NCBI GenBank assembly: GCA_048213135.1
Contig: PS015156.1
Location: 3,318-57,415 of the forward strand
Direction of reading: 5' to 3'
Source: Reclinomonas americana ATCC 50394
Taxonomy: Eukaryota
DNA: 54,098 bases
The notes under the pieces are model-generated. The model saw nothing but the letters and a program-made list of their open reading frames with translations. It did not search any database and was not told where the DNA came from. Below, one piece after another: positions 19,543 through 51,808 of this stretch. Position 1 is the stretch's first letter, and every line of letters begins with the position of its first letter. The position numbers and the translations under genes were made by a program.

Positions 19543-25070
<5,528 letters not shown>

Positions 25071-25132: not shown

Positions 25133-28100
25133 TCACAGCTCCATGGTGAAGCCACCCAGCTTCTCTCGCAGATCACGCATCACCGTCCTTGCCTCCGCCG
25201 CAGTTGGTCTGTCATAGAACAGCGACATGCATCTGCACAGAAAGCAAGCGAAGTGAGCGGCGAGCCAACTCTTCTCTCTCTCTCCTCCTCGCACGCAACT
25301 GCACTCCCAACCGCAGCATCCCGCTCGCCACATCCGCCGGCCACTCGCCCGCAGCAAGATCCGCCTCCTCGGCACCGTCCACCGACTCGAGTGACCGTTC
25401 CCACCGCGCAGCCTGTCCCACCAGGGTGCGCGCCTCGCGACCCGTTAGGAGCTGCAGCAAGACGACACCAAAGGCGTGCAGATCCATGGCTGCACGGATC
25501 TCGCCCGAGCGGAAGAAGAGTGGATCGGTATAGTACGAGGAACCGGCGTGTTTGGCGGTGTGGTGGTGGGTCTGTGCGCGGGGAGAGAGGGGGATGACGA
25601 AGAGAATGACGAAGAGAGATGCATTCTCTGTTCGTGAACTCATGCTCTCGCCGTGCTCTCAAGACACAATCTCCACACATGCGAGAGTGCAGAACGACAA
25701 TCTTTCCATTCTCTCTGCGACGAGAATAGTTGTACAACCCATCCTCTCAACGTGGAGATGCACGAGTACACGTTTACCTTTCTCTCACCCACCGCACAAA
25801 TCACAGGTGCCGATCAAGGAGACACGGAGAACGAGAGTAGTTCTCGTGCACCAGAGTTGCGAAGAAAGAGAGTGGACACAGAATGAGCAAGGCGATCACG
25901 CTGAGGAATGGGGAAAGAGTGCACATACAACAAACATGAACACTACATCGATCGCGCTGCAAGCACCTGCTAATTTTCGATGACATTCATGAAAGAATCC
26001 ACTCGACAACGAGAGTGAAAAGTGGAAAGAAGACGAACTCATCTCGGGGATCGGAATAATGAGTGAAACGCACACCAACAAAAAGAAGTAGATATGCATC
26101 TTGCTGTGCCACTGTCCATCTGCACACTCACCTCCCCCTCATCGAAAATGCGCGCAATGCCAAAGTCTCCAAGACGTGGCTCACATCGATTGTCAAGCAG
26201 AATGTTAGATGGTTTGAGATCGCGATGCACAACGCCGTTCTGAGAGGAGAGAAAGTGAGGGTGACGAAGGAAGGGCAGGTAAACATTCGGAAGGAGAGGG
26301 CGATGGTCCCCGAGAAAGCATGACGACGAGAAAGGAACGATGGGCCGAGAAGGTATCGACAAATGGCAGATTGTGGGTGAGATGGAAGAGAAGACAGGTA
26401 AGATCACCAACACGAGCGGTGCAAACACATAGCAAATGATGGTATCCCCAAGCGAACACATCTGGAGTGAGAAGCACGAGGAGAGGAAAGACAAGCAACA
26501 CAATCCAGCGACAGACAACTCAATGAAGACGAGTAAGCTGACAACAGCCAAAGATAACAGCCTTATCAACAAAGAAGAGCCTGAAGATGCTCTCACAAAC
26601 AACAGACACAGACAATGATTGCTCTCGCCTATCTGAGAGGTCGCGCAGGGAAACTGTCGACTAACTCACCTGATGCAAGAAACACATGCCCTCGACAATG
26701 CCGAGTCCGATTTGCACACGTTGCACCACCGTCAACGGTCGCATCCCGTCCTTCCGCTTCATGAGTCGCACCTCCAGATCCTGTCCACTGCGGATGCATT
26801 GAATGTGAGGAAGAAGGGAATGCAAAGGGAAGAGAAAGAGAATAGGAAAGAAGCTTCGGTAAAGAAGAATGATCTCTGGAAGGTGCTCATTGTGTATGGA
26901 CCAGTGAAGACTCAGATTATTATTTCAAGGAGTGAGAGAGAGAGAACGAGAAACAATGAAGGGAGGTGGAGAGCAAACGGGGGGAGAGACACATATAATG
27001 CAAGTAAGCGGGAGTGAACCAACCGCCTCGTCACACTTCCCCCACGAACTCACCGCATGGCTCGATACACCAGACATCGCCCTCGCACACCACCACCCTC
27101 CACCAGTGTGGAGTATCCCAGCAGCGGAACAAGTCGACGATGATGTAGTCGTCCGATCGTGTTCAACTGGCATGAGTAGAAGTGAGCAACAGCTTAATCC
27201 CATTCCCTCCTGCTTCAACAGACCTCGGCATCGTACGACTCCATTGCCGAGGGCGCGGCACCATCCAGTCGCTTGACAGCCACCTCTTCCTCGTTCAGCC
27301 AACACAAGTACACCTCACCATGACCGCCTTCGCCGGCCTTCAGGTCGTCGGAGAAGGATTCAGTGGCGCGTAGAATGTCAGGCCAGGGGTATTCGCGCAG
27401 GCGATTGGGATCAGCGGCTGCAGATGGGGAAAGGAGAAAGAGAGGTTCAGAGTGACGGTTCGAAGGGAAGAGATGCATCTCTCTCACACGCACCTTGGAG
27501 AGAGGCCAGCTCGCGGCGCAAACGACTGTTTTCATGCGTGAAATCGACTCGCTCACTGGCGAAGACATGCGCCTGCTGCTCCAGTTCACGCTGCAGCTGC
27601 GCGACACGCTGTTCCGAAACAGAAAGAGCCTGTTGCAGTTCCCGCTGCTGCCGCTCAGCTTGTCGCTCGAGTTCCCGCTGCTGCTGTTCTCGCTCACGGC
27701 GGTATGCGTCGTATTCACGCTGGAGATGAGAAATGACGGCGTCCTTGTCGGCTAGCTGGCGCAACAACGCAGCGGCGTCTAGTGCCTGCAGGGAATCAGG
27801 GAGGTAGGATTGAGGCGAGAGAAACAGAGTGACAAAATTTGGCATGTGAGATGGTGCATGAGTGGAACTGAATGCGCAGCTCCTCACCTGTCGATGTATG
27901 GATGCTGCTGCTTGTGCGACGACACGATTTGGGCAGACAAAGGCACGAAACGCTGGTCAGGAAAAAGGGACAAGCGCAGAAAATGGAGCGAGATACCTGC
28001 AGGTGGAGATCGCTGCTGTTGTTGTTTTTGACGTGGTGATGCTTGCTGCTGCGCAGCCAGGCGGTCGAGCAACTCAGCCACATACTGGTGGCCGTTATCT

Positions 28101-28698
28101 CGAGCCCACTGAGCCGCCGATTCGCCTTCCTTGTCGACCATGGGAATGAGGTCGGGAAAGCGCGTGGCGAGGAGTCGCACAACGGCTTCGTGCCCTCGTG
28201 CGGCAGTCCAATGCAGTGCAGTGGACTGTGGATTCGGATGACGTTCATTGGTGACCGCCCGCACCATTTCCGGGGGACATCGTCGCTCATCGGCCAGCAA
28301 CCACTCGACCACGTGCAGATGGCCTTTGATGGCAGCCGCCATCAGTGGCGTCTCGCCATATTCATCGACCACCAGTGCGAGTTCCGGACCGACGCCACTC
28401 TTCTCCCACAAATACTCCAACACAGAGAGATGGCCTCCGTGAGCGGCACGGTAAAATGCCGAGCAGCCCTTATACATCTCCTCTCTCTCCAGCAGAGTGT
28501 GTGCACCCTCGCGTGCCACCAGCTCGCGCAGTGCCTTCACATTGCCATCATATGCCATCTCCCAAGCTTTCAGCCTGCAAAACACAACCAGCAAATGGTG
28601 AGTGCGCTCCAGTGACAGACCTGACAACAATACAAACAACACACATACACACACCTTCGAGCGCCACCACTGCCCGCTCCACTCCGCGCCGCACTCAT
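25133..28698 (-). CDS. Ankyrin-repeat / coiled-coil / IRAK-Pelle(RLCK)-type protein kinase, copy 1 (~613 aa)
   Basis: Exons 28698-28655, 28574-27997 (ankyrin), 27910-27888, 27785-27494 (coiled coil), 27417-27224, 27166-27054, 26787-26670, 26239-26132, 25571-25300, 25232-25133 join in frame (1842 nt). Motifs [40 protein letters not shown]. Confidence 0.9.
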
Positions 28699-29211
28699 TC
28701 TCCTCAACGACAGGAACGAAGTCGTGACAGAAGTGTCCTGCAAGTTTCGTTCACTTCGTCGTTTTCGCTTTCTCCATTTCCCTCCATCACTCGCGACTCC
28801 ACTAATACACACAGCCATCGAACTTCACGTATGCGACAGAGTAAACACCCGCACAAACAGAACTCAAAAAAGTCGACGTTCACGACGTCGCTCCGTCGTT
28901 CTCTAATTCAATTAGCACCGTGAGTTCAAGCGTAAGTACCCTCTGCCGACCGACGTATGAGGTTCCTTGTCGCACACCTTCATTATCGTGCTCAGCATTC
29001 TCCTGCTCTCATATTGAGCGACGAAGTTGCCTCGAGGGCTGGGCACTGAAATCTCGCTCGGAGTCGCCAAGCGTGGCGGGCTGCATGGTGACTGGCCGCA
29101 GTCAACATCGACAGTCCTCCAGTCACCTGCCAACGGCACAGGCGACAGCTGTGGCCACAAGCGTCGGGGGGCACCTGGATTGCAATGCACCTTCCACTCC
29201 CTTCTGTCTCG

Positions 29212-32810
<3,599 letters not shown>

Positions 32811-33315
32811 CCTCCCCAACAACGACAGGAACGAAGTCGTGACAGAATGTGTCCTGCTATGCAAAGTTTCGTTCACTTCGTCGTTTTTGCTTTCTCCATT
32901 TCCCACCATCACTCGCGACTCGGCTAACGCACACAGCCATTGAACTTCACGTGTGCGACAGAGTAAACACACGTGCAAACAGAACTCAACAAAGTCGACG
33001 TTCATCACGACGTCGACGTCGCCATTCCGTAAGTTCAAGCTAAAATGCCCTTCGCCGACCGACGTATGAGGTTCCTTTTCGCACACCTTCATTATCGTGC
33101 TCAGCATTCTCCTGCTCTCATTTCGAGCGACGACGTTGCCTCGAGGGCTGGGCACTGAAATCTCGCTCGGAGTCGCCCAGCGGGCTGCATGGTGACTGGC
33201 CGCATTCAATATCGACAGTCCTCCAGTTACCTGCCAACGGCGCAGGCGACAGATGTGGCCACAAGTGTCGGAGGGCACCTGGATTGCAATGCACCTTCCA
33301 CTCCTTTCTGTCTCT

Positions 33316-36300
33316 TCACAGCTCCATGGTGAATCCACCCAGCCTCTCTCGCAGATCACGCATCACCGTCCTTGCCTCCGCCGCAGTTGGTCTGTCATAG
33401 AACAGCGACATGCACCTGCGCAGAGAGCAAGCGAAGTGAGTGGTGAGTCAACTCTTCGCTCTCCCTCCTCGTCGCACGCAACTGCACTCCCAACCGCAGC
33501 ATCCCACTCGCCACATTCGCCGGCCACTCGCCCGCAGAAAGATCCGCCTCCTCGGCACCGTTCACCGACTCGAGTGACCGCTCCCACCGCGCAGCCTGTC
33601 CCACCACTGCACGTGCGTCGCAACCGGTCAACAACTGCAGCAAGATGACACCAAAGGCGTGCAGATCCATGGCGGCACGGATCTCGCCTGCGCGGACGAA
33701 CAGCGGGTCGATGTAGTACGAGGAACCGGCGTGTTTGGCGGTGTGGTGGTGGGTCTGTGCGCGGGGGGATGAGAAGAGAATGGCGAAGAGAGATGCATTC
33801 TCTGTTCGTGAACTCATGCTCTCGCCGTGCTCTCAGGACACAATCTCCACCATGCGAGAGTGAACAATGAGATTCTGTCTATTCTCTTTGCGACGAGAAA
33901 AAACGATGTGCAACTAATCCTCTCAACGTGGAGAGGCGAGTACACGTTTACCTTCCTCTCACCCATTGCAAAAATCACAGGTCTACGAACAAGGAGACAC
34001 GGAGAACGAGAGTAGTTCTCATGCACCAGAGTTGCGAAGAAAGAGAGTGGACACAGAATGAGCAAGGCGATCACTCTCAGGAATGGAGAACGAGTCCGCA
34101 TGCAACAAACATGAACACTCCATCGATCGCGCTGCAAGCACCTGCTAAGTTTCGATGACAGTCATGGAAGAATCCACTCGACAAAGAGAGTGAGGAGTGG
34201 AAAGAAGACGGGCTCTGGGTCTCCAACAAGCAACTGGGCAAGGGGATCGATAGAACGAGTGAAACGCACACCAACAACAAAGAAGTGGAGAAGTATCTTC
34301 CTGTGCTAACATCCATCTGCTGACACAGACACACACCTCCCCCTCATCGAAAATGCGCGCAATGCCAAAGTCACCGAGTCGTGGCTCGCATCGATTGTCA
34401 AGCAGAATGTTAGATGGTTTTAGATCGCGATGCACGACGCCGTTCTGAGAGGAGAGAGAGTGAGGGTTACGGTGGAAGGGAACATTTGGAGAGAGGGCGA
34501 TGGTTAACGAGAATGCATGACGACGAGAAAGGAACGACGGGCCGAGAAAGTATCGACAAATGGCAAATTGTGGGTGAAACGGAAGAAGATCAAGAACACG
34601 AACAGCAAGCACACGTAACCGATGATGGTATCCACAAGTGAACTGTCGAGAGTGAGAAGAACGACGAGAGAAAAGACAGGAAACACAATCCAACGGCAGA
34701 CAACTCAAGGAAGACGAGTGCCCGCCCACTCTCCGCTGACAACAACCAAAGACACAGCCTAATGAACAAGAAAGAGCCTCACGATACTCTCATCAACCGA
34801 AGACACAAACAAAGATTACTCTCGCCAAGCAGGATAGCAGAGAGAGAGTGTGTGTGCTGCGCCACTCACCTGATGCAAGAAACACATGCCCTCAACAATT
34901 CCGAGTCCTATTTGCACACGCTCCACCACCGTCAGTGGCTGCATGCCGACCGCTCGCTTCATGAGTCGCACTTCCAGATCTTGTCCACTGTGTGCGAAGC
35001 AAGGGAATGCGGAGGGAGAAGGAAGAGAAAAGGAAAGAAGCAAAAGGAGGAGACAATGCGCTTGGTTGAATAAGAATGACGATCTCTGGAAGGTGCTCAT
35101 TGTGTATCGGTCAGTGACGATTCAGATCATTATTTCTAGGAGAGAGAGAGAGAAAGAGAAACAATGAGGGGAGGTGGAGAGCAAACAGGGGGAGAGACAG
35201 ATATGATGCAAGTAAACGGGAGTGCACAGAAGAGAATCAACAAATTAACCACCTCGTCACACTTCCCCCACCAACTCACCGCATTGCTCGATACACCAAA
35301 CATCGCCCTCGCACACCACCGCCCTCCACCAGTGTGGAATAACCCAAAAGCGGGACAAGTCGACGATGATGCAGCCGTCCAATCGTGTTCAACTGGCATG
35401 AGGAGAAGTGAGCAACAGCTTAATCCCATTCCCTCCTGCTTCAACAGACCTCGGCATCGTACGACTCCATCGCCGATGGCGCAGCACCATCAAGTCGCTT
35501 GACAGCCACCTCTTCCTCGCTCAGCCAACACAGATACACGTCACCATGACCGCCCTCTCCGGCCTTCAAGTCGTCGGAGAAGGATTCAGTGGCGCGGAGA
35601 ATGTCGGGCCAGGGGTATTCGAGAAGGCGATTGGGATCAGCGGCTGCAGATGGGGAAAGGAGAAAGAGAGGTTCAGAGTGACGGTTCGAAGAGAAGAGAA
35701 GCATCTCTCTCAGTCACACCTTGGAGGGTGGCCAACTCGCGGCGCAAGCGACTGTTTTCATGCGTGAGATCGACTCGCTCACTGGCAAACAGTTGCGCCT
35801 GCAGTTCCAGTTCACGCTGCAGCTGCGCGACACGTTGTTCTGACACGGCATTGGCTTGTCGAAGCTCTTCGTGCTGCCGCTCAAGTTCCCGCTGCTGCTG
35901 CTCTCGCTCACGGCGGTATGCTTCGTATTCATGCGGAAGATGAGACATGATGGCGTCCTTGTCGGCGAGCTGGCGCTCCACCGCGACGGCGTCCACAGCC
36001 TGCAGGTAACAAGGAGGTCGGAAAGAGTAGAGAGAAAGAGAGCGACAAGAAACCACCACAGACGGTGTGCGAATGGACTGACGTCGAAAGGAATGCGCAG
36101 ATTCTTACCTGCCGCTGTGGCGAAGCTGCTGCTGGCACACGAGCAAATTCGACTATGCGGACGGAGTAGGAACACAAAGTCACGAAGTGCAGGTCAGCAT
36201 GTGCAAGGGAGAGACAACAGCACACGTCAGAGAAAGACCTGGAGGTGGAGGAGATCGCGGCTGCTGCTGTTGTTGTTGTTGTTGACGTGGTGGTGCTGGT

Positions 36301-36958
36301 TGTGCAGCGAGGTGGTCGAGCAAGTCGGCCACTTGGTGGCAACCAAAGAGGCGTGCCCATTGAGCCGCCGTCATGCCCTCCTTGTTCACCACGGGAACGA
36401 GGTCGGGAAAGCGTGTGGCGAGGAGTCGCACAATGGATTCTTGACCAGATGCGGCAGCCCAATGCAGTGCAGTGGACTGTGGAACGTTTGCACGATCATT
36501 GGTGACGGCCCGCACCATCTCCGGCGGACATCGTCGCTCATCGGCCAGCAGCCACTCGACCACGTGCAGATATCCATTGAATGCAGCAACCATCAGTGGC
36601 GTCCAGCCATAATCGTCAACCACCAGTGCAAGTTCCGGACCGACGCCACTCTCTTCCGACAAATACTCCAACACAGAGAGATGACCTTGTTGAGCGGCAC
36701 CGTAAAATGCCGAGCAGCCCTCATATATCTCCTCTCTCTCCAGCAGAGTGTGTGCACCCTCGCGTGCCACCAGCTCGCGCAGTGCCTTCAAATTGCCATC
36801 ATATGCCATCTCCCAAGCTGTCAGCCTGCAAAACGCAACCAGCAAAGAGAGTGAGTGTGCTTCAGAGATCGATCGGACAACATCACACACATTCACACAC
36901 GCACACACCTCCGAGCGCCACCACTTCCCCCCACAGCTCCCCTGCGCGCCGCGCTCAT
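33316..36958 (-). CDS. Ankyrin / coiled-coil / IRAK-Pelle-type kinase, copy 3
   Basis: Same structure; ankyrin exon 36825-36239; catalytic motifs intact. Confidence 0.88.
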
Positions 36959-37467
36959 TCTCCCCAACAACGACAGGAATGAAGTCGCGACAGAAGTGTC
37001 CTGCAAGTTTCGTTCCAACTTCGTCGTTTTCGCCTCCATCTCTCTCGCTCGCTCGCGACTCCACTAACGCACACAGCCATCGAACTTCACGTATGCGACA
37101 GAGTAAACACCCGCACAAACAGAACTCAACAAAGTCGACGTTCATCACGACGTCGCCCTGTCGTTCTCTAATTCAATGAAGTTCAAGCGTAAGTACTAGT
37201 ACCCTTCGCCGACCGACGTATGAGGTTCCTTGTCGCACACCTTCATTATCGTGCTCGGCGTTCTCCTGCTCTCATATAAAACGAAGATGCCTCGATGGCT
37301 GGGCACTGAAATCTCGCTCGGAGTCGCCCAGCGGGCTGCATGGTGACTGGCCGCATTCAATATCGACAGCCCTTCAGTCACCTGCCAAAGGCACAGGCGA
37401 AAGCTGTGGCCACAAGCGTCGGAGGGCACCTGAATTGTAATGCACCTTCCACTCCCTTCTGGTCTCT

Positions 37468-40400
37468 TCACAGCTCCATGGTGAATCCACCCAGCCTTTC
37501 TCTTAGATCGCGCATCACCATTCTCGCCTCAGCCGCAGTTGGTCTATCATAGAAAAGCGACATGCATCTGCACAGAGAGCAAGCGAAGTGAGTGGTGAGT
37601 CAACTCTTCTCTCTCTCTCTTCTCCGTCGGACGCAACTGCACTCCTAACCGAAGCATCCCACTCGCCACATCCGCCGGCCACTCACCCGCAGAAAGATCC
37701 GCCTCCTCCGCACCGTCCACCGATTCCAATGACCGTTCCCACCGCGCAGCCTGCCCCACCAGCGTGCGCGCCTCGCGACCCGTCAGCAGCTGCAGCAAGA
37801 TAACACCGAATGCGTGCAGATCCATTGCTGCACGAATCTCGCCCGAGCGGAAGAAGAGCGGATCGGTGTAGTACGAGGAGCCGGCGTGTTTAGCGGTATG
37901 GTGGTGGGTCTGTGTGCGGGGAGAGAGGGGGATGAGAAGAGAATGGCGAAGAGAGATGCATTCTCTGTTCGCGAACTCATGCTCACGCCGCAGCGTGCTC
38001 TCAAGACACAATCTCCACACATGCGAGAGTGAACAACGAACATTCTGTCTCTTCTCTCCGCGACGAGAATTGTTGTGCAACTCACCCTCTCAACGGGGAG
38101 ACAGACGAGTACACGTTTACCTTTCTCTCACCCACTGCACAAATCACAGGTCCACGATCAAGGAGACACGGAGTATGATAGTAGTTCTCATGCACCAGAG
38201 TTGCGAAGGAAATGAGTGTGGACACATAATGAGCCAAGTGTTCACGCTGAGGAATGGAGAACAAATGCATATACAACAAACATGAACACTCCATCGATCG
38301 CGCTGCAAGCACGTGCTAAGTCTCGATGACAGAAACGAAAGAACCCACTCGACAGAGTGAGAAGTGGAAAGAAGATGAGCTCTGGGTCTCCAACACGCAA
38401 CTATGCAAGGGGATCGGTAGAACGAGTGAAATGCACACCAATAACAAAGAAGTGGAGAAGTATCTTCCTGCTATTCTCCATCTGAGGACACACACTCACC
38501 TCCCCCTCATCGAAAATGCGCGCGATGCCAAAGTCTCCAAGACGTGGCTCGCTTCGGTTGTCGAGCAGAATGTTGGATGGTTTGAGATCGCGATGCACGA
38601 CGCCGTTCTGAGAGGAGAGAGAGAGTGAGGGTGATGGAGGAAGGGCAGGTAAACATTTGGAAGGAGAGGGCGATCGTCTCCGAGAATTCATGATGACGGG
38701 AAGGAACATGCCATTCGAGGGCAGATTGTGGGTGAAGTGGAAGAGAAGACAAGGAAGATCACCAACTCACGAGCAATGAGCATCACATCGCAAATGATGG
38801 CATCCACAAGTAAACTGTCGAGAGTGAGAAGCACGACGAGAGGAAAGACAAGAAACACACTACAACGACTGGCAACACAAAGACGCGAGTACTTACTCTC
38901 TGCTGACAACAACCAAAGACACAGCCTTATCAACAAAGAAGAGCCTGAAGATGCTCTCACAAACAAAAGACACAGACAATGATTGCGCTCGCCAACAGGG
39001 AAACTGTCGACTAACTCACCTGATGCAAGAAACACATGCCCTCGACAATGCCGAGTCCGATTTGCACACGTTGCACCACCGTCAACGGTCGCATCCCGTC
39101 CTTCCGCTCCATGAGTCGCACCTCCAAATCCTGTCCGCTGTGTGCGAAGCAAGGGAGGTGAGAGGAAGAAGGGAATGCAGAAGAGTGAAAGGAAAGAAGC
39201 AAAAGGAGGAGACAATGCGCTTCGGTAAAGAAGAATGATCTCTGGAAGGTGCTCATTGTGTATGGATGAGTGAAGATTCTGGTTATTATTTCAATGAGTG
39301 AGAGAGAGAGAACGAGAAACAATGAAGGGAGGTGGAGAGCAAACGGGGGGAGAGACACATATAATGCAAGTAAGCGGGAGTGAACCAACCGCCTCGTCAC
39401 ACTTCCCCCACGAACTCACCGCATGGCTCGATACACCAGACATCGCCCTCGCACACCACCACCCTCCACCAGCGTGGAGTATCCCAGCAGTGGAACAAGT
39501 CGACGATGATGCAGTCGTCCAATCGTGTTCAACTGGCATGAGGGGAAGTGAGCAACAGCTTAATCTCATCTCCTCCTGCCTCAACAGACCTCGACATCGT
39601 ATGACTCCATGGCCGACGGCGCAGCACCATCCAGTCGCTTGACAGCCACCTCTTCCTCGCTCAACCAGCACAGATACACCTCACCATGACCGCCTTCGCC
39701 GGCCTTCAAGTCGTCGGAGAAGGATTCCGTGGCGCGTAGAATGTCGGGCCAGGGGTATTCGCGCAGGCGATTGGGATCTGCGGCTGCAGATGGGGAAAGG
39801 AGAAAGAAAGGTTTAGAGTGACGGTTTGAAGAGAGAAGAGGTGCATCGCTCTCAGTCAGACCTTGGAGGGTGGCCAGCTCGCGGCGCAAGCGACCGACCT
39901 CATGGGTGAGATCGAACCGCTCACTGGCAAAGAGTTGCGCCTGCTGTTCCAGTTCACGCTGCAGCTGCGAGACACGTTGTTCCGAAACAGAAAGACCCTG
40001 TCGAAGTTCCTCGTGCTGCCGCTCATGTTCCAGCTGCTGCTGCTCTCGCTCGTGTCGGTATGCGTCGTATTCATGCTGGAGATGAGAAATGACGGCGTCC
40101 TTGTCGGCTAGCTGGCGCAACAACGCAGCGGCGTCTAGTGCCTGCAGAGAATCAGGGAGGTAGGATTGAGGCGAGAGAAACAGAGTGACAAGAAACTACC
40201 AGAGACGGTACGCGAATGGACTGATATTGTAAGGAATGCGCAGATTCTCACCTGCCGCTGTGGCGAAGCTGCTGTTGGCACACGAGCAAATTTGATGATG
40301 GGGACGGAGAAGGAACACAAAGTCACGAAGTGCAGGTCAGCATGTGCAAAGGAGAGACAACAGCACACGTCAGAGAAAGACCTGGAGGCGGGGATCGCGG

Positions 40401-41082
40401 CTGCTGTTGTCGTTGTTGGGGTGGTAGTGCTGGCGGCGCAGCGAGGCGGTCGAGCAACTCGGCCACTTGCTGGCGACCAAAGAGGCGTGCCCTCTGAGCC
40501 GCCGTCTTGCCCTCATAGTCGACAATCGGGACGAGGTCGGGAAAGCGAGCGGCGAGGAGGCAAACAATGGCTTCGTGGCCCCAGGCGGCAGCAAAATGCA
40601 GTGCGGTGGAATGTGGATTCTTGTGACGATCATTGGTGACCGCCCGCACCATCTCCGGCGGACATCGTCGCTCATCGGCCAGCAGCCACTCGACCACTTG
40701 CAGACACCCTTCAGCGGCAGTAACCATCAGTGGCGTCATGCCATAGTCGGTGACCACCAGTGCGAGTTCCGGACCGACGCCACTCTCCTCCCACAAATAC
40801 TCCAACACAGAGAGATGGCCTTCGTGAGCGGCATAGAAAAATGCCGAGCCGTTATTACGCATCTCATCTCTCTTCAGGAGAGTGCGTGCGCCCTCACGTG
40901 CCACCAACTCGCGCAGTGCCTTCACATCGCCAAGCAAAGCCATCTCCCAAGCTTTCAGCCTGCAAAACGCAACAACAAGCAAAGAGAGTGAGTTTGCACA
41001 GAGCGATCAGACTGCAAACAACAGATCCCAGGCACGCGCACCTCTTTCCTCCACCGTTGCCTCTGTTCTGTGCAGCACTCAT
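37468..41082 (-). CDS. Ankyrin / coiled-coil / IRAK-Pelle-type kinase, copy 4
   Basis: Same structure; ankyrin exon 40959-40382; catalytic motifs intact. Confidence 0.88.
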
Positions 41083-41674
41083 TCTGCACACACTCACAGG
41101 GCTCCACACACAAGGGTGATCACAAGGGCGGGAGTTGGCGGAGTGACGAGAGATGATCGTCCTGCAGGTTTTTCCGATGTCGACGTCTCTCTTCTTCAAC
41201 ACTAAAATTCACTGCCTCGCCTCACCGCAGAGCTGTAGTGCTCGTGAATGTTCACAGCAGCTGCCTCAGACGCGCAGGGTGCCAATTGTGTGCCGACGTC
41301 GATACTGTTTTCGACGTCGCGCAGCGTGCGCAAACAATCACTTCATACACCACATTCCAAATGCGACAAACGCCCACAAATCCCTTGCCGATTGCGACGA
41401 TGACCTTGGCACACCAACAATATTCAAACACATAATTACTCTCTTCTCTAACAGTCATCTTCCCTTTCTGGAGACAAAGCCAATTAAAGACGCGTGTTGG
41501 CCTCGACTGGATCTCATGGCGCAAATGGTGTCAGCGGCCTACGGAACTCATCTGCGATGAAAGTAAGCATCGTAAATGGCCACTCTTATCCCCCCTACCC
41601 CCTCACCCCTCTCAACCTCTTCTCCGTCAACCTCAGACTCTCACCATCGCTCCCACCGCCGCGCAAATTCACCT

Positions 41675-42661
41675 CTATGAGAGAATCTCTTGACGCTGCT
41701 GAAGATCGGCCAGCGCGCTGCGCAAATGGTCGAGCTCACGGGTGAAAGCATCAGCCTGCTCCTCCAGTTCTCGTTCCGCCTGCTCAAGCTTCCGTCGCTG
41801 CTGCTCGAATTCTTCCTCACGCTGCTCACGCTCCTCACGGTACGCAGCACGCTCACGTTACAAAAGTGCAATGAGCGCGTCCTTGCCTGCCGCGGCCGCC
41901 TGCACGACACAGCGAGGGGTGAGGCAATGAACGAGAGGCGCCAACAATGGAAAAAAGGTCACCTGCTGCAGCGATGACTTCAGCAAAGCGTGTGGACCAA
42001 CATGTCAAGGATCATCGCTTAACCTTCATCGAGCAGCTCAACAACCCGCCGTTTCCCGCCCTCACGCGCCATCGCAGCCGCCGTTCTGCCACTCTTGTCC
42101 ACCGCACCGACAAGATCGGGAACGCGTGCGACAAGGAGCTCCACCACTGCCTCATGACCTTGCATGGCCGCCCAATGCAACGCCGTGAACCCGTCACAGT
42201 TGACCGCTCGCGCCTCACACCGCCGCTCATCAGCAAGCAACCACTCCACCACGCGCACTTGTCCCTCGGCCGCAGCATCCATCAGTGGAGTCGATCCACA
42301 GTCGTTCGCCATGTGTGCCAGCTGCGGACCGACACCACTCTCCTCCCACAAGTACTCCAACACTGAAAGGTGGCCGTAGGAGGCGGCGTAGGCAAATGCA
42401 GAGCTGCCGCTGTTTGTTTCCTCTTCTTGTAGGAGAATGTGGGCGCCTTCACGTGTGACTAGCTCGCGCAGTGCGTCCACGTTGTTGGCCTCTGCCATTT
42501 CCCAGGCGGGTGGTCTGGTGTGAGGGAAAGAGAGGGAGAGGGAGGGAGAGAGGGGGGAGGGAGGGGGAGTGGAGTGACAGAGAAAGAGAGTGGGCAGAGA
42601 GAAAGAGGGTGAGTGAGGGGAGAGCGAACCTCTCGGACGGTGCATTCTGCTCGGCAGCCAT
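41675..42661 (-). pseudogene. Divergent copy 5: ankyrin + coiled coil, premature stop, no intact kinase
   Basis: Short first exon (MAAEQNAPSER, ATG at 42661) and open ankyrin exon 42514-42024. The coiled-coil exon (AAAAGKDALIALL*RERAAYREEREQR...) has an in-frame TAA at 41858-41860 where copies 1, 2 and 4 have Gln. It could still encode an ankyrin-only protein. Confidence 0.7.
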
Positions 42662-42967
42662 TGCAACAGAGAAACTGTCCTGCATGCGTTCTGGATCGTC
42701 GGAACATTCAGGGAATGAACGTCCTTTGCCAGCGTTGGGTGGTGCGGCAAGTACGACATGCAGAATGGGAGCACACGGGAGAGGGGGTATGACGTCGACG
42801 TCGACGATGCTGAAGTTTGTGGTGGTTCGGCGTCAGCTGAAAGCCGGCTCACCAGTGGCCACCAGAACTTGTGCTGACAAAGCGCTGATGCCTGAGCCCC
42901 ATCGAAAGCTTCGACTCAGACGGGAGAGCATCTCTCTGCGTTGTCTGCATGACTTTATAAATTTACT

Positions 42968-43949
42968 TCAAAGCTCCTTCATGAGCCCACTCAGCTTCTC
43001 TCGGAGATCCCGCATTGCCGACAGGAATAGCGACGCGCATCTGCACAAAAGAATGAGAGGCAGCCCAACCGCATCCCTTCCCATCTCTTCTCGCCGCAGA
43101 CGCAACTGCATATCTCACAGTGTCGGTCGACTGTACTGATCGTTCCCGTCTGCGCAGCACTTGCACCAGATTCACCTCGAGTGTAGGGACGCTGCTGGTG
43201 GCAGGTTCGGGGACGCACAATGACACGCAATGCAAGTCAGGAAACGAGAGACAACAGCTAATGAAGACAACGAGAGACAAATATACCTGGAGGTGGCTGG
43301 TCTTGTCGATGTGCTGGTGCTGGCTGCGGAGAGAGGCGATCGAGCACCTCAGCCACCTGGTGGTGGTCGTTGTCGCGTGCCACCTCAGCAGCTGTCTTGC
43401 CTTCCTTGTCAACCATGGGTACGAGGTCGGGGAAGCGAGTGGCAAGGAGTTGCACAATGGCTTCGTGGCCACTCCAGGCAGCGAAATGCAGCGCAGTCCA
43501 CTGTTCATAGTCGACTACCTCTGACGCACATCGTCGCTCGTCGGCCAGCAACCATTCCATCACATGCAAATGTCCTTGCTCGGCAGCTACCATCAGTGAT
43601 GTCAAGCCATAGTCAGTGACCAACTGTGCGAGTTGCGGCCCGACGCCACTCTCCTCCCACAGATACTCCAACACAGAGAGGTGGCCTTTCCACGCGGCAC
43701 AGTAGAATGCCGAGGCGCCCTCATCCATCTCCTCCTTGTTCAGCAGAATGTGCGTGCCCTCACGCGCAACCGACTCGCGCAGTGCCCTCACATCGCCGTA
43801 ATAAGCCATCGCACATGCTCTCAGCCTTTTACCATGAAGCAGCCAGTGTGCGTTCCATAAGACTGACATCGAAACAACGAATTGCACATGCACACGCACC
43901 TCTCATCGCCACCACGTGCATCCTTGCCTCTGCTCCGTGCGGCACTCAT
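42968..43949 (-). pseudogene. Copy 6: intact ankyrin exon, internal deletion of the coiled coil and nearly all of the kinase
   Basis: First exon MSAARSRGKDARGGDER (ATG at 43949) and open ankyrin exon 43825-43287. It then passes almost directly into sequence homologous to the last two kinase exons (...[15 protein letters not shown], stop 42968-42970). Confidence 0.7.
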
Positions 43950-44606: not shown

Positions 44607-47600
44607 AGGGAGGGATAACCCGCATTGCATTCGTTGCATGCATGATCAATTCTTGTCTCTTTCTGCATCACTCACTTCATCGCTATTGCGGTTTGCTCTG
44701 CACAGAAAGGCGCTCATGTGCAGGAACTGGAGTCGACTTACGGAGTGGTGCTGCGTGTGCCCGGGCGAGGAGCCGTGGGACCGGTGTCTGTCAGTGGACC
44801 GTGAGTGGTGGAAGAGGAAGATGGGGCGAAGAGGGTGGACATAAGGAGAGAGGGGAAGAGAAGGGAGATAAAGAGAGAGAGAAGGAGGAATGAGGGCGAG
44901 AGAGGGGGTGCAAAGAGAGAGAGAGAGAAGGAGGACAGAGAGTGAGAGCGAGAGGTAAGGGAGGAAGAAGGAGTAAGGGGGAGAGAGAAAGGGAGGAAAG
45001 AGAGCGAGAGAGAGAGGGTGGGTGGAGTTAAAGAGAGAGAGGAGGAGGACAGAGAGCGAGAGCGAGAGAGGTAAGGGAGGAAGAATGAGTAGGAAGGGGA
45101 GGGGAGCGCCTCTTCTGCCCTATTTCCAGCCCCGCCCTCTTTGAGAACGCCCTGAAGATCGTCACAAACCCCCTTCCTCTCTCATCCTCTTCTCCCTCCA
45201 CAGTGAACGCGGCTGCTGTGACGCCCTGCTGGCCATCCTCCGTGCCGCGGGAGATAATGTACGAGTCGCAGTGCAGATGCCGTTTGTGAACATTGCCGGC
45301 GACGTGACGGCCTTTTTTGGTGCGTTGAGCTCTGATCGTCTTACTCGCAGTCGCTGACTCACTGAGCTGTCTCCGTGCCTTGCGCAGCCGACTTGAAGGT
45401 TTGTATCTTTGTGAGGGACCTCCTCTCTCTCTCTCTCTGTGGTTGTTCCTGTTTGGTGCTTGAGGAAGCTCTCATTTCAGTGCTTGCTCACTTGCGAACT
45501 AAGCGCATTTCCTCCTCTACTCTCTCATCTTCGGTTGCGTACTTTCATGTCTGGTGGCGCATCTGTCAGATACCTACTCTCGTTCTCTTTTATTCCCCCT
45601 ATTGGAGCGTGAATGCAGCTCTTTCTGAGCTTGCACTTGTCGTTGTGTTCTGTTCGACCTAGCACTCGCCTTCAATTCATTCTTCCCCTCTTTCCCCCTT
45701 TCCCCCTCCCTCCCCCCCCATCCCACAGCCCGACCTCGAAGGCATCCACGTCGTCGACAGCGAAATGAAAGTCGCCGTCGTCTCCGGCGAATCGGCCATC
45801 GTGCGCAAGCTCCTCTTCACCTACATTATCCAAGCGGCGCCGTGGGGACGAGGTGGGCGCGCCTTTCTCTTGATACCCTCTTATCTTTGCTCACTTCTTC
45901 GACAGGCGAGTACGCCTTTGTCGAGTACTTTGTGCCGTCGGCCCGCGTGGGCCGCATCATTGGACCGCAGGGCTCGGTGATCCGCGACATGCAGCAGGCC
46001 ACCGGTGCCAACATTCAAGTGCTGCAGCCGAGTCGCGGCCGACAAGGCGCCGACGAGCACGTGGTGCACGTGACAGGTCCGCCGGCGGCCGTGCGCGCGG
46101 CGTGCCAGCGCGTGGAGGCGGCGTCGGGGGTGGTGAGTGAAGGAGAGAGAGTGGACGAGAGGCAAGAGACCGGAGAGTTGAATGTGTGTGCGCATACTCG
46201 CAGGCTGACCTTCACGGCACCGCGATCTTGGCGCCGCCGGGTGCACCACCGGCAAACACCGTGTCGTCGTCGTCGTCGTCGTCTGACGCGTCTGTCCCAA
46301 CGGCTGCCGCCGGAGGTGCCTCGGGATCTGGTTCCTTCCTCCCCACGCCGGGAGTTGCTTCCGCCGCTGCGACTCCGGCGGATCCGGGCGACACCTTCAC
46401 CGCCATTGGTGCGCTGCTAGTGGCCAGTTGCAATCACTTTTTGGAGAATGCCGGCACGCGAGTGGCCATCCGTGCCGACATGGCGAAACTGCAGCAGGCG
46501 TTGAAGCAGGCGCCAGGTGCGTACAAGGGGGAAGGGTGGAGTGGGAGATCATCCGAGGACGTGCATCTTTGCGTAGTTTTCATTGTCGTCTCTTGCGCTC
46601 TTTTGTCGTGCCCTTTTCGTTCCCTTTTGTGTTGAAGGGGGAAGGGCGGTGTGGGGAAATCCTCCAAGGACGTGCATTTTTGCGTAATTTTCCTTGTCGT
46701 CTCTTGCGCTCTTTTTTTGCCGAAGGGAAAAACAAAAAAACATTCACCGCCTTATCTCGTTTTCTGCCTGTCCCTCTCCCTTGTGTGTGTGTGACCGCAA
46801 GGCAACTGATGATTCTTTCTCTTGTGTCTTGATTCTCACTCTTCCCCATTCCCTTTCCCTTGCTTCCCTTTCCTTCCACAGACGTCACCTTCGCCTGCAC
46901 CAGCGCCCGCCGCCTCATGCACGCCACCGCCAAGAGCGCCCTCTCGCGAGGCGGCCTCGACCCGGAGTTGTTTGTCGACTGGATGAGCGACGTCGCCGAG
47001 TGCATTGCCATTGCCGAGCACAATGCGGTTCGTTACATAGTCATTTCTCTTTGCGTATTCTTGCTGAGTTTGCGGACACAGACCGCTCAACACGAATGCC
47101 TGTTCTTCCCCTCCGAGGCCTCGTACCTGCGTGTGCTCGAGGTGCTGAGCTCGGCGCACGTCTCCATGGACATTTGCGTGTTCACCATCACCGACGATCG
47201 CATATCCAACGCGGTGCTGCGTGCGCACGATCGCGGAGTGCGTGTTCGCGTCATCAGCGACGACGAGTGCCTGAAGCAGCGCGGCTCGGATGTGGAGCGC
47301 ATGGTGAGCAGAAAGTGGTGAAGTGGTTATTCTCGTTGTCATCTCACCGCTTGCGCCCAGGCGCGAGCTGGCATTCCGTGCCGTCCCGACGCCAATCCGG
47401 CCTCCCACATGCACCACAAGTTTGTGATTATCGATGGTGGTCGTGGTGAGTGGCAAAATAAGAACGGAGGTGTGTCGTGGAGGCCTTCTCACTGCGCATC
47501 GCCAGTGATGAACGGGTCGTACAACTGGACGCAGAACGCCTCGCACATCAACCGCGAGAATGTGGTGATTACGAGCGAGCCGTCGGTGGTCAGCGCTTTC

Positions 47601-47660
47601 CAGGATCACTTTAACACGCTGTGGGTGGAGTACCGAGCCAATGAGCTGCCGCGCAAGTGA
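44440..47660 (+). CDS. KH-domain RNA-binding protein fused to a single-HKD PLD6/Zucchini/Nuc-like nuclease domain (~522 aa)
   Basis: Exons 44440-44514, 44706-44800, 45204-45319, 45388-45398, 45729-45852, 45906-46132, 46204-46516, 46882-47027, 47082-47303, 47361-47445, 47506-47660 join in frame (1569 nt). KH1 VPATQIGRVIGAKGAHVQEL; KH2 VPSARVGRIIGPQGSVIRDMQQATGANIQV. PLD domain CLFFPS...MDICVFTITDDRIS...GVRVRVISD...HMHHKFVIID...NGSYNWTQNA...NREN. Confidence 0.85.
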
Positions 47661-48960
47661 TAAGAGGGGGAGGGAAAGAGAGCGGTGAAGGAGAAGTGAG
47701 TGGTAAAAGCCGTTTCTTCGATCACGCAAGCAACACTGAAGGATTGCGAGGAATTGTGAGGGAGGGAAAGGGGCAAAGGAACTTTGTGCTACTCCTGTCT
47801 GTTATTCACACTCGCACACCTGGACGCATTTGATGCACGAAGGCATGTGGATGAGGTGAACGGAATTACGCAGTCTCTCATGTACCAGAATCTGCAAGCT
47901 GATCTGGTCACCAACTTCACAACCCGTCAGAGCCTTGGTTGGTTATTGCCTTGTTTCGTCTTCCCTCTTCTCCCTGTCATTCCCTCTCCCCACTCTCAAA
48001 GCGTTTCTGTCTCCCTATTTGTGTGCGTGTGTGTGTGTCTCTCTCGCGCTCCCATTGTCAAAATCGTTCACATCAACGAACTGCGTGGTGCACAGAGCCA
48101 GTGAGTTTTGCGCTGCCCAGGGTCACCGCAACACAAGAAAATGCTGCCACACACACGAGCATCGCGCGAGACAAGGGAAGAGCTACAGCCGCAGACTACG
48201 TCGCGCTCCTCTTGCTCATATNNNNNNNNNNNNNNNNNNNNNNNNNNNNNNNNNNNNNNNNNNNNNNNNNNNNNNNNNNNNNNNNNNNNNNNNNNNNNNN
48301 NNNNNNNNNNNNNNNNNNNNNNNNNNNNNNNNNNNNNNNNNNNNNNNNNNNNNNNNNNNNNNNNNNNNNNNNNNNNNNNNNNNNNNNNNNNNNNNNNNNN
48401 NNNNNNNNNNNNNNNNNNNNNNNNNNNNNNNNNNNNNNNNNNNNNNNNNNNNNNNNNNNNNNNNNNNNNNNNNNNNNNNNNNNNNNNNNNNNNNNNNNNN
48501 NNNNNNNNNNNNNNNNNNNNNNNNNNNNNNNNNNNNNNNNNNNNNNNNNNNNNNNNNNNNNNNNNNNNNNNNNNNNNNNNNNNNNNNNNNNNNNNNNNNN
48601 NNNNNNNNNNNNNNNNNNNNNNNNNNNNNNNNNNNNNNNNNNNNNNNNNNNNNNNNNNNNNNNNNNNNNNNNNNNNNNNNNNNNNNNNNNNNNNNNNNNN
48701 NNNNNNNNNNNNNNNNNNNNNNNNNNNNNNNNNNNNNNNNNNNNNNNNNNNNNNNNNNNNNNNNNNNNNNNNAACCTGCCTTCGTCACTCTCTTCGTCTG
48801 CCTCCCTGTCTCCTACGCATCTCCAGATCGTGTATCGAGTAGCCAGCGACAAGTGCCTCCCAGGATCACACGTGTGAGACGTGCGAGACAATTAAACAAG
48901 AAGCAGCTATACTATGATTCTCTCCCTCCCCCTCTCCTTCTCCTCTCTCTCACTCCTTAT

Positions 48961-50037
48961 TCACACGGTGTCTCCTTGCTCCGCGGCCTTGTCCTCGCGG
49001 TAGCCCGCCACAGCACTCTGCATCATGACACGCTGCGCGAGGGCCTTGAACTGCAAGAAGTGTGAGTGAGAGCGAGAAATGGGAGATCACTGGGAGGGCG
49101 ACAAACCTCGTCGAACTCGATGACCCCGTTTCTGTTGCGATCGAGGACTGCACGAGAGAGGGAGGTTGAGAGGGAGAAGCAAGTGAAAGAGGGCGCTCAT
49201 TTGCACTCACCAAAGAAGGTCGCCTCGGCCATTTCTCGCGTCGGCGGTGCTGCGGCTTGTGATGGGAATTGTTGCACGAAGGCTGGGAAGGAGGGAAGGA
49301 GGGAGGGAGGGGAAGGGAGGGGAAAAGAGAAGGGTGGGTGGTGGAAGGGGAAGGAAGGGGAAGAGGGTGGGAAGGAGGGAAGGAGGGAGGAGAAAGCAAC
49401 GCAGAGAGGGCGAGTGATGGAAGGGAGGAAGAACCAAAAGAACAGAAAAAGAGAGAAGGTTGGAACGGAGACAGGAAGGCAAACGGAGAAGGTCAGAGAG
49501 GAAGAGAGGCAGAGAAGAAGGAGGAGGAGGGTGAATGATGAAAGGGAGGGCGAACAGAGGAGGGAGATTGAGGAACAGAAGGAGAGAGGAACAGCGCGCA
49601 AAAACTGCAAGGGAGGGAGGAGAAAGAGAGGCGGACAAGGAGGAGGAGGAGGGCGAATGGAGGGGGAAGAAGGGAGGGCCGAGGAGAGAGGAAGAAAGGG
49701 CACTAACTGTAAGGAAGGGAGGAGGGAGAGAGGGGGAGGAGGAGGAGGAGGGCGAATGATGGAAGGGAGGGCGAACGGAGGAGGGAGAAGAAGGGCGGGA
49801 CGAGGAGAGAGGAAGACCGACTGGAAGGGAGTGATGCATGAACAAGTGCCTGACTGAAACAGAGAGATTGCTGAAAGTCTCTCCCCTTTCTGTGAGTGAG
49901 TGAGTGTATGTGTGAGAATGAGTGGAGTACTGTGTGTGAGAGTGTGTGTGTGTGAGAGAGAGAAAGAGACTGAATGAATGTGTGTCTCTTCCAGGTCCTC
50001 TGTCATTCGCTCATTCGCTCACTCATTCGCTCACTCA

Positions 50038-50083
<46 letters not shown>

Positions 50084-50437
50084 CTCTCACACACACACTC
50101 CTCCTCTCTCTCTCTCTCTCTCTCCCTCTCTCACACTCACACTCACTCACTATCCCCACTCAACTCTGATGCACAGACAGCAACACGCCAAACAACTCCT
50201 CAAAGTCCAGCACTCCATTGCCATCCTACAGGAGAGCAGTAAGAGCACAACACACACACACAAACACGCGCGCGAAACACCCTTCTCACACTCAACTTGA
50301 TCTGCTGCACTGAACGCCGTCAACACCTCCTCATGGAAAGCATCAGTGAGGAAGTGCGCCTCCACCTCCTCGCGCAGCTGCAAGAGGCCCTCGTCGGACT
50401 CCTCCTCCAACTCGGTCGTGTGCGGTTGGTCGCACAT
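48961..50437 (-). CDS. Small two-EF-hand calcium-binding protein (~134 aa)
   Basis: Exons 50437-50297, 50225-50165, 49282-49211, 49147-49107, 49050-48961 join in frame (405 nt). Canonical loops DQDGNGVLDFEE and DRNRNGVIEFDE. Confidence 0.8.
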
Positions 50438-51808
50438 CACAGCAGTAAAGGTAATGAAAGGATGAATGGCGATTGGTTGGTTGGTCGGTGGTCTTTCGGT
50501 GAACGTGTTTCTCTTGGTCTCACTGGTGTGTGTGAGAGAGAGTGTCGCTGCAGTGAGTGAGGCTTTTTTTGCCTTGTCGAGAGGTGTACAACACAATACC
50601 GAACCGAACACGATGTGAGAATTATGAGGAGCGACAACAAGTATCCTGACGGCTATGCCGTCACGGCCGCTTTAGTGTGCGCGTGTACGTTGTGTGAGTA
50701 CTAGTCGCGCGAGTGTTGTACTGCTTTTGCACGGCAGAGCGATGGACCGGGGATGTAGCGTTTGATGATGATCATGACACGCTGCGCAACAACAACTTTA
50801 CTAATCCAAACAGCAACACAGCTGCATGATAACAACAACTTTACTAATCCAAACAGCAGCAGCTGCATAATGATCACCATCTTGAGTGAGCACCAGAAAC
50901 TCAGACATCATGATCACGTGAACACTGAGAGAAAGTCGAGATGGCTAATGCTGGCGTTTCTGCAAGAGAAACCACGGCTCATGACAAGCATGGATTTGAC
51001 GCCGAATTCCAAAAAGGAAACGAGAAAGATAGCAAAGTGTTGGTACCAGAACATATAGGGAAAACCAACAAAGCCAGGCAACGTGCAAGCAAGTCCGGGA
51101 AGGAACTGAGATGCACTAGAGAGGTTGTTGTTGGTGATGGTGTTGCTCACGGGAGTTGTCACTGCAGCTGTTGTTTTTGCTCGACGATGCTTTGTGGCTT
51201 GAGGTGATTGGAACATGGAGATCACAGCTGCATCGCCGCAAGGATAGTGCATCCGATCCCAAGCGTGCGAGGGAACTGCAGTGAAATCGTGCGATGGTCG
51301 AAACCACAACAAACTACTTCGCCAGCAAACTCCATGTCGACAACAACAGTTGCTTCGCGAATGCCAACAGCAACACAGCTGTCTACCCCATGCTCCTTTT
51401 GCTGCCATCCCATGCCCCCTTTTGCTACCTTCCCCTTCTCCCCTGTTGCTGTCTTCACCTTGCCCCTGTTGCTGTCCTCCCCTTCCCCATTTGCTGTCCT
51501 CCCCTTCCCCATTTGCTGTCTTCCCATTGCCCTGCTTGCTGTCCTCGCCTTGCCCCTTTTGCTCTCCTCCCCTTGCCCTTCTAGCTCTCATTCCCTTGCC
51601 CCTTTTGCTGTCTACCCCTTTCCCCTATCTTGCTGTCTTCCCCTTGCCCTTTTTGCTCTCATCCTCTTTCTTTTTGCTGCCACCCCTTCCCCCATTTGCT
51701 GTCTTCCCCTTGCCCCTTTTGCTTTCTTGCCCCTCTCTCCTTTTGCTGTCTTCCCCTTTCTTGCTGTCCTCCCCTTTCCCCCATTTGTGTCAGACAATTC
51801 CATTCGCC

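Follow-up and report, generated by a model that had tools for sequence, protein, structure and literature searches.

What does a flagellated protist do with a row of ankyrin–kinase genes whose kinases hardly change while their ankyrin domains differ at particular sites? The question is raised by a 54,098-nucleotide stretch of DNA from the jakobid Reclinomonas americana ATCC 50394 (contig PS015156.1, positions 3,318 to 57,415; hereafter the window, numbered from its first letter), which carries six tandem ankyrin gene copies, four of them complete with a coiled coil and a protein kinase. A preliminary description, made from the letters alone, had seen in this array a family of IRAK/Pelle-type immune sensors with hypervariable binding faces like those of designed ankyrin repeat proteins (DARPins). 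We could confirm its observations, and its interpretation is partly supported. The canonical concave face of the ankyrin domain is under positive selection, at positions 13/14 and 10 (where the inner helix ends) and at position 5 of the hairpin. Purifying selection acts on the scaffold of this domain, as it does on the coiled coil and the kinase, and the convex surface is conserved. As to function, we favour, at a probability of about one half, a family of cytosolic receptor-like kinases that would act as an innate-immune-like sensor array.

Positive selection on the concave ankyrin face

The ankyrin domain of copy 1 consists of five repeats (an N-cap-like first, three internal and a C-cap-like last) and has the size of a DARPin. 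An AlphaFold2 (AF2) model, for which seven aligned sequences served as input, shows five helix pairs (predicted local distance difference test, pLDDT, 91.8; predicted template-modelling score 0.84), and the top Foldseek matches to it in the PDB are DARPins, with template-modelling scores of ~0.7 by query and ~0.8 by target at 28–34% identity. All six ankyrin exons match Pfam Ank_2 (E-values from 1e-17 to 8e-29), so that both the Pfam match and the stacked helix–hairpin–helix fold identify an ankyrin repeat domain. Among longer proteins the exon retrieved generic ankyrin proteins only, at 25–54% identity (at most 39% where at least 45% of the query was covered), and no orthologue was found among them.

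The preliminary description had listed the residues that differ between copies 1 to 6, both the pairs in successive repeats (YD/WN/YD/LL/EA/YY in the first, and so on) and the hairpin strings before repeat 3 (DEYGE/TDHGE/DDYGW/TDYGM/NDCGS/TDYGL), and each of these proved exact to the letter. It had also placed them on the concave face, which agrees with the AF2 model: helix 1 of successive repeats terminates at residues 41, 77, 121 and 154, the location of positions 13/14. We fixed 26 face sites beforehand in the 169-column ankyrin alignment, namely repeat positions 2, 3, 5, 13, 14 and 33, which we take to be the set randomised in DARPins. An independent ankyrin library randomised positions 2, 3, 5, 10, 13 and 33 (PMC4308713). 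The mean number of distinct residues is 3.35 at the 26 predefined sites against 1.73 at the remaining 143 columns, and among 100000 random draws of 26 columns none was as high as the observed sum. Tyr, Trp, Phe and His together make up 23% of the face residues against 9% of those elsewhere.

Pairwise estimates for copies 1–4 by the method of Nei and Gojobori (NG86) gave synonymous divergences (dS) of 0.24–0.30 in the ankyrin exon, 0.28–0.57 in the coiled coil and 0.29–0.47 in the pooled kinase; from such similar values in all gene parts we conclude that the copies are old paralogues. The ratio of nonsynonymous to synonymous rates (omega) is 0.50–0.72, 0.20–0.32 and 0.05–0.11, respectively, the last range agreeing with the fixed signalling kinase proposed earlier. 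Homogenisation by gene conversion was rejected as the source of this conservation: kinase dS is no lower than ankyrin dS, and it is therefore purifying selection that conserves the kinase.

Across the six copies, a single omega for the ankyrin exon (model M0) is 0.51. A fixed-partition likelihood separates this into 2.30–2.48 for the 26 predefined sites and 0.34 for all others, and is better than a model with face omega = 1 on all four topologies, by 24.0–28.6 in twice the log-likelihood difference (2dlnL); the tests were run on three to four topologies because the ingroup of the nucleotide tree is nearly star-like (supports 30–73). The preliminary description had proposed separate site models for ankyrin and kinase exons. 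Model M2a is favoured over M1a for the ankyrin exon (2dlnL 27.5–35.9), with a selected class of omega 4.6–5.2 at ~11% of sites, and brings no gain for the kinase (299 codons; 2dlnL 0–1.96) or for the coiled coil (97 codons; 2dlnL 1.0–1.7), in which omega is ~0.3 with no positively selected class. Seven residues of the copy 1 ankyrin domain (3, 37, 40, 41, 69, 77 and 121) have a naive empirical Bayes (NEB) probability of omega >1 above 0.9; six of these lie within the predefined set, itself 26 of 169 columns, and the remaining one is position 10 in repeat 2. At NEB >0.5 the predefined set holds 14 of 19 sites. Two-sequence likelihoods, which use no tree, gave a face omega of 2.6–5.05 in all six pairs of copies 1–4 (p from 0.008 to 4e-6, the pairs not being independent), and the face signal is also present in comparisons with copy 6. 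Positions 13/14 alone, with an omega of 5.4 (2dlnL 47), supply the bulk of it; position 10 has an omega of 2.9 (2dlnL 10).

Could such values arise without adaptation? The predefined positions are naturally of high entropy in ankyrin repeats (PMC4308713), and their variety might reflect no more than an unconstrained surface; exposed helix-2 sites, on the convex side, nevertheless have an omega of 0.37, significantly below 1 (2dlnL 22), and a general relaxation of the surface was rejected on this ground. Omega >1 might also be an artefact of recombination, multi-nucleotide changes or few sequences. In 29 null simulations, though, in which the face evolved neutrally and the recombinant history had three segments, the M2a and partition tests rose to maxima of 5.03 and 6.54, compared with the observed 27.5–35.9 and 24–28.6; the estimated face omega was 0.64–1.44, and none of the replicates passed the M2a cut-off of 5.99. 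The kinase and coiled-coil controls, as given above, were negative. Mis-assembled haplotypes, which the preliminary description had named as a way in which it could be wrong, were rejected as well: a dS of 0.24–0.47, intron indels and a head-to-tail order in gap-free sequence argue that the copies are not haplotypes. We regard an artefactual origin of the signal as very unlikely.

A number of points nonetheless weigh against the selection reading. The codon likelihoods come from a self-written Goldman–Yang F3x4 program and not from PAML or HyPhy, and the sample is six sequences of one array with an ankyrin exon of 169 codons. In repeats 2 and 4, the canonical positions that fall in the irregular loops were assigned by eye, and the null simulations represent one recombination scheme in 29 replicates. 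Omega is only ~0.5–1.4 if NG86 dS is taken from the face codons themselves, a noisy estimate that covers ~14 synonymous sites and is raised by multi-hit codons. Recombination among the copies is real, in that the kinase prefers the grouping 14|23 by ~40 log-likelihood units and the ankyrin exon prefers 12|34. Finally, hairpin positions 2, 3, 5 and 33 jointly have an omega of 1.36, which does not exceed 1 significantly (p 0.14). Of the diversifying binding face claimed earlier, positive selection as opposed to mere relaxation stands, but the hairpin sites as a group do not reach significance. With six sequences, a self-written likelihood program and recombination present, what was found is an omega >1 confined to the ligand-binding surface, next to a scaffold and a signalling domain that are both under constraint.

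Copies 1 and 4, which are not neighbours, share tracts of 97–100% identity in introns and middle kinase exons (25300-27840 and 37638-40200). Between these two copies, dS is 0.038 in exon 6 and 0.30 in the ankyrin exons. Taken together with the conflicting trees, the near-identical tracts point to recent gene conversion that spared the ankyrin exon.

Gene models, truncated copies and neighbouring genes

The DNA of the window is eukaryotic and nuclear; its genes are spliced, and low-complexity tracts of CT/GA and CA/TG are numerous. All array genes lie on the minus strand, and since the runs of N in the window are confined to positions outside 22214-48221, the array is without assembly gaps. A MAFFT alignment shows four head-to-tail repeat units of ~4.1 kb, with identities between 0.4 and 1.0 depending on the segment and with the nearest copy switching along the unit. 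Exons were placed by reading frames and conserved GT-AG sites and spliced in silico, which gave four intact open reading frames (ORFs) of 589–593 amino acids (aa) with an identical nine-exon structure (Table 1): an ankyrin exon of 562–571 nucleotides (nt), a putative 23-nt micro-exon, a coiled-coil exon and six kinase exons. The micro-exon was included because the reading frame is otherwise lost. Two splice sites depart from the canonical form in these otherwise GT-AG genes, the GC donor of intron 8 in copy 2 (29371-29373) and the micro-exon acceptor of copy 4 (40275-40276), where the aligned dinucleotide is AA and an AG that keeps the frame lies 3 nt downstream.

The bounds given for the ankyrin exons in the preliminary description hold at their lower ends, which in copies 1–4 fall within 1–3 nt of GT donors, but each upper end lies 16 nt upstream of the ATG. 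Its report on the 36-aa HRD–DFG exon is accurate: copies 1–3 are identical and copy 4 has one change, C to S. Its six-member ankyrin–kinase array is indeed tandem, but a kinase is found in only four of the six copies, the fifth and sixth being truncated. Copy 5 has a deletion in the loop between repeats 3 and 4 that leaves the ankyrin reading frame open; in copy 6 the coiled coil and the kinase are both absent except for a relic of the last kinase exon. The scaffold of these kinase-less copies is constrained, with a pairwise omega at non-face sites of 0.19–0.22 for copy 5 and 0.19–0.31 for copy 6.

Table 1. Positions in the window of the array copies, their exons and the flanking ORFs.
Feature	Position	Strand	Description
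Copy 1	25133..28558	-	Intact; 9 exons; 593 aa + stop; spliced ORF 1782 nt with single terminal stop; all introns GT-AG
Copy 1, exon 1	28558-27997	-	Ankyrin domain, five repeats
Copy 1, exon 2	27910-27888	-	Putative 23-nt micro-exon
Copy 1, exon 3	27785-27494	-	Coiled coil, 97 aa
Copy 1, exons 4-9	27417-27224, 27166-27054, 26787-26670, 26239-26132, 25571-25300, 25232-25133	-	Kinase; 26239-26132 is the HRD-DFG exon
Copy 2	29212..32659	-	Intact; 9 exons; 590 aa + stop; 1773 nt; ankyrin exon 32659-32095; GC donor at intron 8
Copy 3	33316..36809	-	Intact; 9 exons; 592 aa + stop; 1779 nt; ankyrin exon 36809-36239; all introns GT-AG
Copy 4	37468..40943	-	Intact; 9 exons; 589 aa + stop; 1770 nt; ankyrin exon 40943-40382
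Copy 5	41678..42498	-	Truncated; ankyrin exon 42498-42022; in-frame stop 42019-42021; coiled-coil relic 41857-41678; kinase absent
Copy 6	42968..43809	-	Truncated; ankyrin exon 43809 to ~43287; last-kinase-exon relic ~43045-42971; stop 42968-42970
Ankyrin ATGs, copies 1-6	28558, 32659, 36809, 40943, 42498, 43809	-
TTL (tubulin-tyrosine ligase family) ORF	23046-23675	+	Pfam E-value 6e-29
Tubulin ORF	7846-8493	-	Pfam E-value 2e-13
KH_1 ORF and two adjacent PLDc_2 ORFs	45629-46417, 46833-47657	+	Pfam E-values 1e-16 (KH_1), 9e-9 and 2e-13 (PLDc_2)

The flanking genes are, by their Pfam matches, ordinary genes of a flagellated eukaryote. The outer parts of the window (1-24000 and 48000-54098) are very rich in strand-asymmetric low-complexity DNA (CT/GA tracts, CA/TG runs and a repeated unit coding for 'SLTH'), and hold 12 N-filled assembly gaps of 20–875 nt; GC skew, measured in 2-kb windows, reaches 0.56.

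Kinase, coiled coil and transcribed relatives

The kinase motifs, including the glycine loop, HRD and DFG, are intact in all four full copies. The HRD exon matches Pfam Pkinase with an E-value of 6.9e-11, and the other kinase exons, each too short on its own, gave no Pfam match. The kinase thus appears to be an active one of the Ser/Thr type, its catalytic competence being predicted from these motifs. In phmmer searches of the PDB, all 23 matches of the C-lobe exon are plant receptor-like kinases (RLKs) or receptor-like cytoplasmic kinases (RLCKs), among them RIPK, PBL2, SYMRK, BIK1, CERK1, FERONIA, BRI1 and Pto, and all 40 matches of the N-lobe exon are RLKs, RLCKs or IRAK1 and IRAK4 (IRAK1 E-value 6.5e-5); the juxta-kinase motif and glycine loop are of the RLK/IRAK type in the latter search. 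By best matches, the closest similarity is therefore to the RLK/Pelle/IRAK kinases of the tyrosine-kinase-like (TKL) group, the HRD exon excepted. Two details tell against this picture of an active RLK-type kinase: the glutamate of the APE motif in the activation segment is replaced in all four copies, where the segment reads DPL, and the 36-aa HRD exon is generic, with MAP kinases rather than RLKs on top of its PDB matches.

An exhaustive HMMER search that started from the C-lobe exon gave 396 proteins at E ≤0.001, headed by Closterium and angiosperm multi-kinase models, a taro kinase–U-box protein and P0113, a 98-aa peptide of Reclinomonas americana in EukProt. For the full kinase, the spliced copy 1 domain was compared by local blastp with the proteins collected in the preceding homologue searches; the best matches have 34–35% identity over 272–299 aa and include proteins named U-box domain-containing protein 51 and 33, the TIR–kinase–RING protein P0225 and a Haptolina kinase–RING protein.

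Several further domains were looked for in the exons and the spliced proteins. A death domain was not found, as Pfam gives only ankyrin families in the N-terminal exon and no Death match elsewhere; the earlier assignment to IRAK/Pelle accordingly survives as an affinity by best matches, but strict membership in either family fails. No transmembrane helix or N-terminal hydrophobic stretch is present: the maximum 19-residue Kyte–Doolittle hydropathy is 1.25–1.58, in every case inside the ankyrin or kinase folds, and the N-terminus is polar, with the ORF of an expressed sequence tag (EST), P0266, starting at the matching Met. Lacking signal peptide, ectodomain and transmembrane segment, the proteins are RLCK-like and not membrane RLKs, and the ankyrin–coiled coil–kinase architecture without membrane signals that had been described is upheld in the four spliced ORFs. 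A U-box or RING E3 domain is likewise absent, the ORF ending ~30 aa past kinase subdomain XI in all four copies and P0113 having the same end, and there is no NACHT or NB-ARC domain, the nine exons being fully taken by the ankyrin domain, linker, coiled coil and kinase.

When two copies of the coiled-coil exon of copy 1 were folded together, the model was a parallel in-register dimer with contacts such as 61–61, 64–64 and 54–54, consistent with the oligomerising coiled coil of the preliminary description. The dimer score was 0.56, compared with 0.00 for the best of three controls, and the runs agreed in at least 97% of contacts with a partner pLDDT of at least 88. The mark set for this score was reached by 21 of 30 proteins whose solved structure is a pair of one chain and by none of 23 whose solved structure is a single chain (17 of 29 and none of 30 for eukaryotes). 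Because coiled coils resemble many solved structures, such a pass may reflect likeness only, and we treat the parallel homodimer as a predicted model.

Relatives of the family are transcribed in a jakobid, as seen from two EST peptides of Reclinomonas americana in EukProt. P0266 (154 aa) is 75% identical to the copy 1 ankyrin domain yet has other residues at the variable sites, and P0113, retrieved by the C-lobe exon, has 65% identity and crosses the predicted junction of exons 8 and 9; the identities of these two peptides, the only ones available, are in the range of paralogues. The C-terminal 20 residues of P0266 match an alternative frame of the window ankyrin exons, and this EST probably carries a frameshift or sequencing error near repeats 4–5.

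Candidate function and comparison with known systems

The reading to which we gave about even odds may be set out as follows. The array would encode a tandem family of cytosolic receptor-like kinases, a full member of which consists of a compact five-repeat ankyrin domain, a coiled coil that dimerises in parallel, and an RLK/Pelle-type kinase from the plant U-box-kinase (RLCK-like) branch minus its E3 ligase tail. The ligand may be a protein that changes fast, each paralogue binding its own version of it on the concave face, and binding on a pre-formed or induced dimer would control trans-phosphorylation and downstream signalling. The ligands would most likely be proteins that are non-self or antagonistic, whether they come from prey, from intracellular bacteria or viruses, or from selfish elements; the family would then be an innate-immune-like sensor array, and the kinase-less copies 5 and 6 could be decoys, regulators or gene-conversion donors. 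The immune role in this proposal is an analogy, and positive selection among paralogues is equally expected where they diverge to different endogenous partners; both points count against it.

The second of these points leads to the main rival, in which the genes encode signalling kinases of an ordinary kind, with ankyrin domains that each bring in a different substrate or scaffold of the host (cytoskeletal or flagellar, for instance; compare ILK, TNNI3K and RIPK4), with bursts of change after duplication and no arms race. An omega >1 among paralogues cannot by itself tell repeated adaptation from one-off divergence; here, though, the face signal appears in all six pairs of copies 1–4 and in the copy 6 comparisons, and a Reclinomonas EST paralogue has further residues at the same sites. 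Fusions of ankyrin domains to kinases are widespread (kinase domains occur in 5 of 104 matches of the ankyrin-exon search), and the neighbours are ordinary cell-biology genes (TTL, tubulin, KH and PLD-like), but a selected class with an omega of 4.6–5.2, aromatic-rich residues only on the concave face, and the retention of kinase-less ankyrin copies under constraint speak against this rival. These five features bring the pattern nearer to recognition families than to a few fixed substrate adaptors. We consider recruitment of endogenous partners possible, at well below even odds.

Cytosolic kinases without a membrane or secretion signal are a poor fit to cell-surface recognition, which bears on a further alternative: allorecognition, mating-type or kin discrimination, or conflict with selfish elements, in the manner of fungal het genes with hypervariable repeats. 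Such systems predict the same selection pattern, and tandem arrays with gene conversion are typical of their loci; no partner locus or death-effector domain, however, was seen in the window. Fungal NLR-like proteins with ankyrin, WD or TPR repeats and this signature include allorecognition genes (PMC4986451). We hold this alternative to be improbable.

The proposal of a receptor-like kinase family can also be put in a stronger and more tentative form, namely a true innate-immune receptor-kinase system of a free-living, heterotrophic Discoba flagellate, in which natural DARPin-like paratopes would sense bacterial or viral proteins in the cytosol, be diversified by selection and shuffled by gene conversion, and signal through a dimerising kinase, with kinase-less copies as decoys. 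The kinase would belong to the clade that serves immunity in plants (RLK/RLCK) and animals (IRAK/Pelle) alike. We regard this form as possible but doubtful. Non-self recognition in free-living protists is little known, and jakobids have barely been studied outside their mitochondria; the locus offers a compact, experimentally tractable candidate, with a DARPin-sized binder of ~170 residues, about ten identifiable specificity sites and an RLK/Pelle/IRAK-type kinase. Should the ligands be foreign, hypervariable sensing by repeat domains would extend to the combination of ankyrin domain and kinase and to a new eukaryotic supergroup, the locus would bear on whether plants and animals inherited the immune use of the kinase clade or came to it convergently, and protein engineers would gain a set of natural ankyrin paratopes. 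If the immune reading is true, the pairing of this kinase clade, as an immune output, with hypervariable repeat sensors would either go back much further and reach more lineages than plants and animals show, or have been assembled convergently a third time. If the ligands are instead host proteins, the array would still be a clear natural case of specificity evolving on an ankyrin face.

How does the array compare with what is already described? Our literature searches brought up no paper that deals with ankyrin kinases of jakobids, Reclinomonas included, or with the RLK/Pelle kinases of Excavata, and no description of a DARPin-sized selected ankyrin domain combined with a coiled coil and an E3-less RLK/Pelle-type kinase, in tandem, in a jakobid-like protist. 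The closest full-length kinases among the proteins compared include those of the plant U-box proteins 33 and 51 (~34–35% identity over 272–299 aa). These have a cytosolic layout too, with the kinase beginning far into the protein (aa 434 in P0238 and 499 in P0201) and a coiled coil ahead of it, but they end in a U-box E3 domain, whereas the window proteins stop ~30 aa past the kinase and carry an N-terminal ankyrin domain. Among 150 nearest kinase representatives, one has ankyrin repeats, the ankyrin–kinase–U-box protein P0215 of Mesostigma viride (EukProt), which shares the kinase subgroup (28% kinase identity) and an N-terminal module, but differs from the window proteins in its long ankyrin region of many repeats and its U-box. 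P0225, the TIR–kinase–RING protein, from an MMETSP transcript (one member of its cluster is labelled Pyramimonas parkeae), combines the same kinase subgroup with an immune-type N-terminal module. Both proteins come from green algae, the window array from a jakobid, and we know of no tandem array or hypervariable face for either. The occurrence of the kinase subgroup in green algae as TIR–kinase–RING and ankyrin–kinase–U-box proteins suggests that a sensor or adaptor module joined to a kinase and an E3 domain is a recurrent design outside land plants.

Animals provide two further comparisons. The IRAK/Pelle proteins are cytosolic signalling kinases activated in oligomers, and IRAK1 and IRAK4 were retrieved by the N-lobe exon; their death domain is absent from the window proteins. 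ILK, RIPK4/ANKK1 and TNNI3K join ankyrin repeats to a TKL-group kinase, ILK in the same N-to-C order, RIPK4 and ANKK1 with the kinase first. None of these was among the 40 N-lobe or the 23 C-lobe matches in the PDB, and ILK is a pseudokinase, in contrast to the window kinase with its intact HRD and DFG.

On the ankyrin side, DARPins and the ANK-N5C library have the same fold and size, and the sites under natural selection here coincide with the positions randomised there for binders (PMC4308713 for the library). The window domains differ from them in being natural, in having two irregular long loops (repeats 1/2 and 3/4) and in having a coiled coil and a kinase fused to them. Fusions of ankyrin domains to kinases, immune use of the kinase clade in plants and animals, and selection on the concave face in fungal NLR-like proteins are already known (the last from PMC4986451). 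In those fungal proteins, candidate non-self receptors, positive selection falls on the concave ankyrin surface, that is on the inner helices and the hairpin; they signal via NACHT or NB-ARC domains and vary among highly similar internal repeats and among alleles. The Reclinomonas family, by contrast, has no NOD domain, a kinase as its output, and its variation among tandem paralogues.

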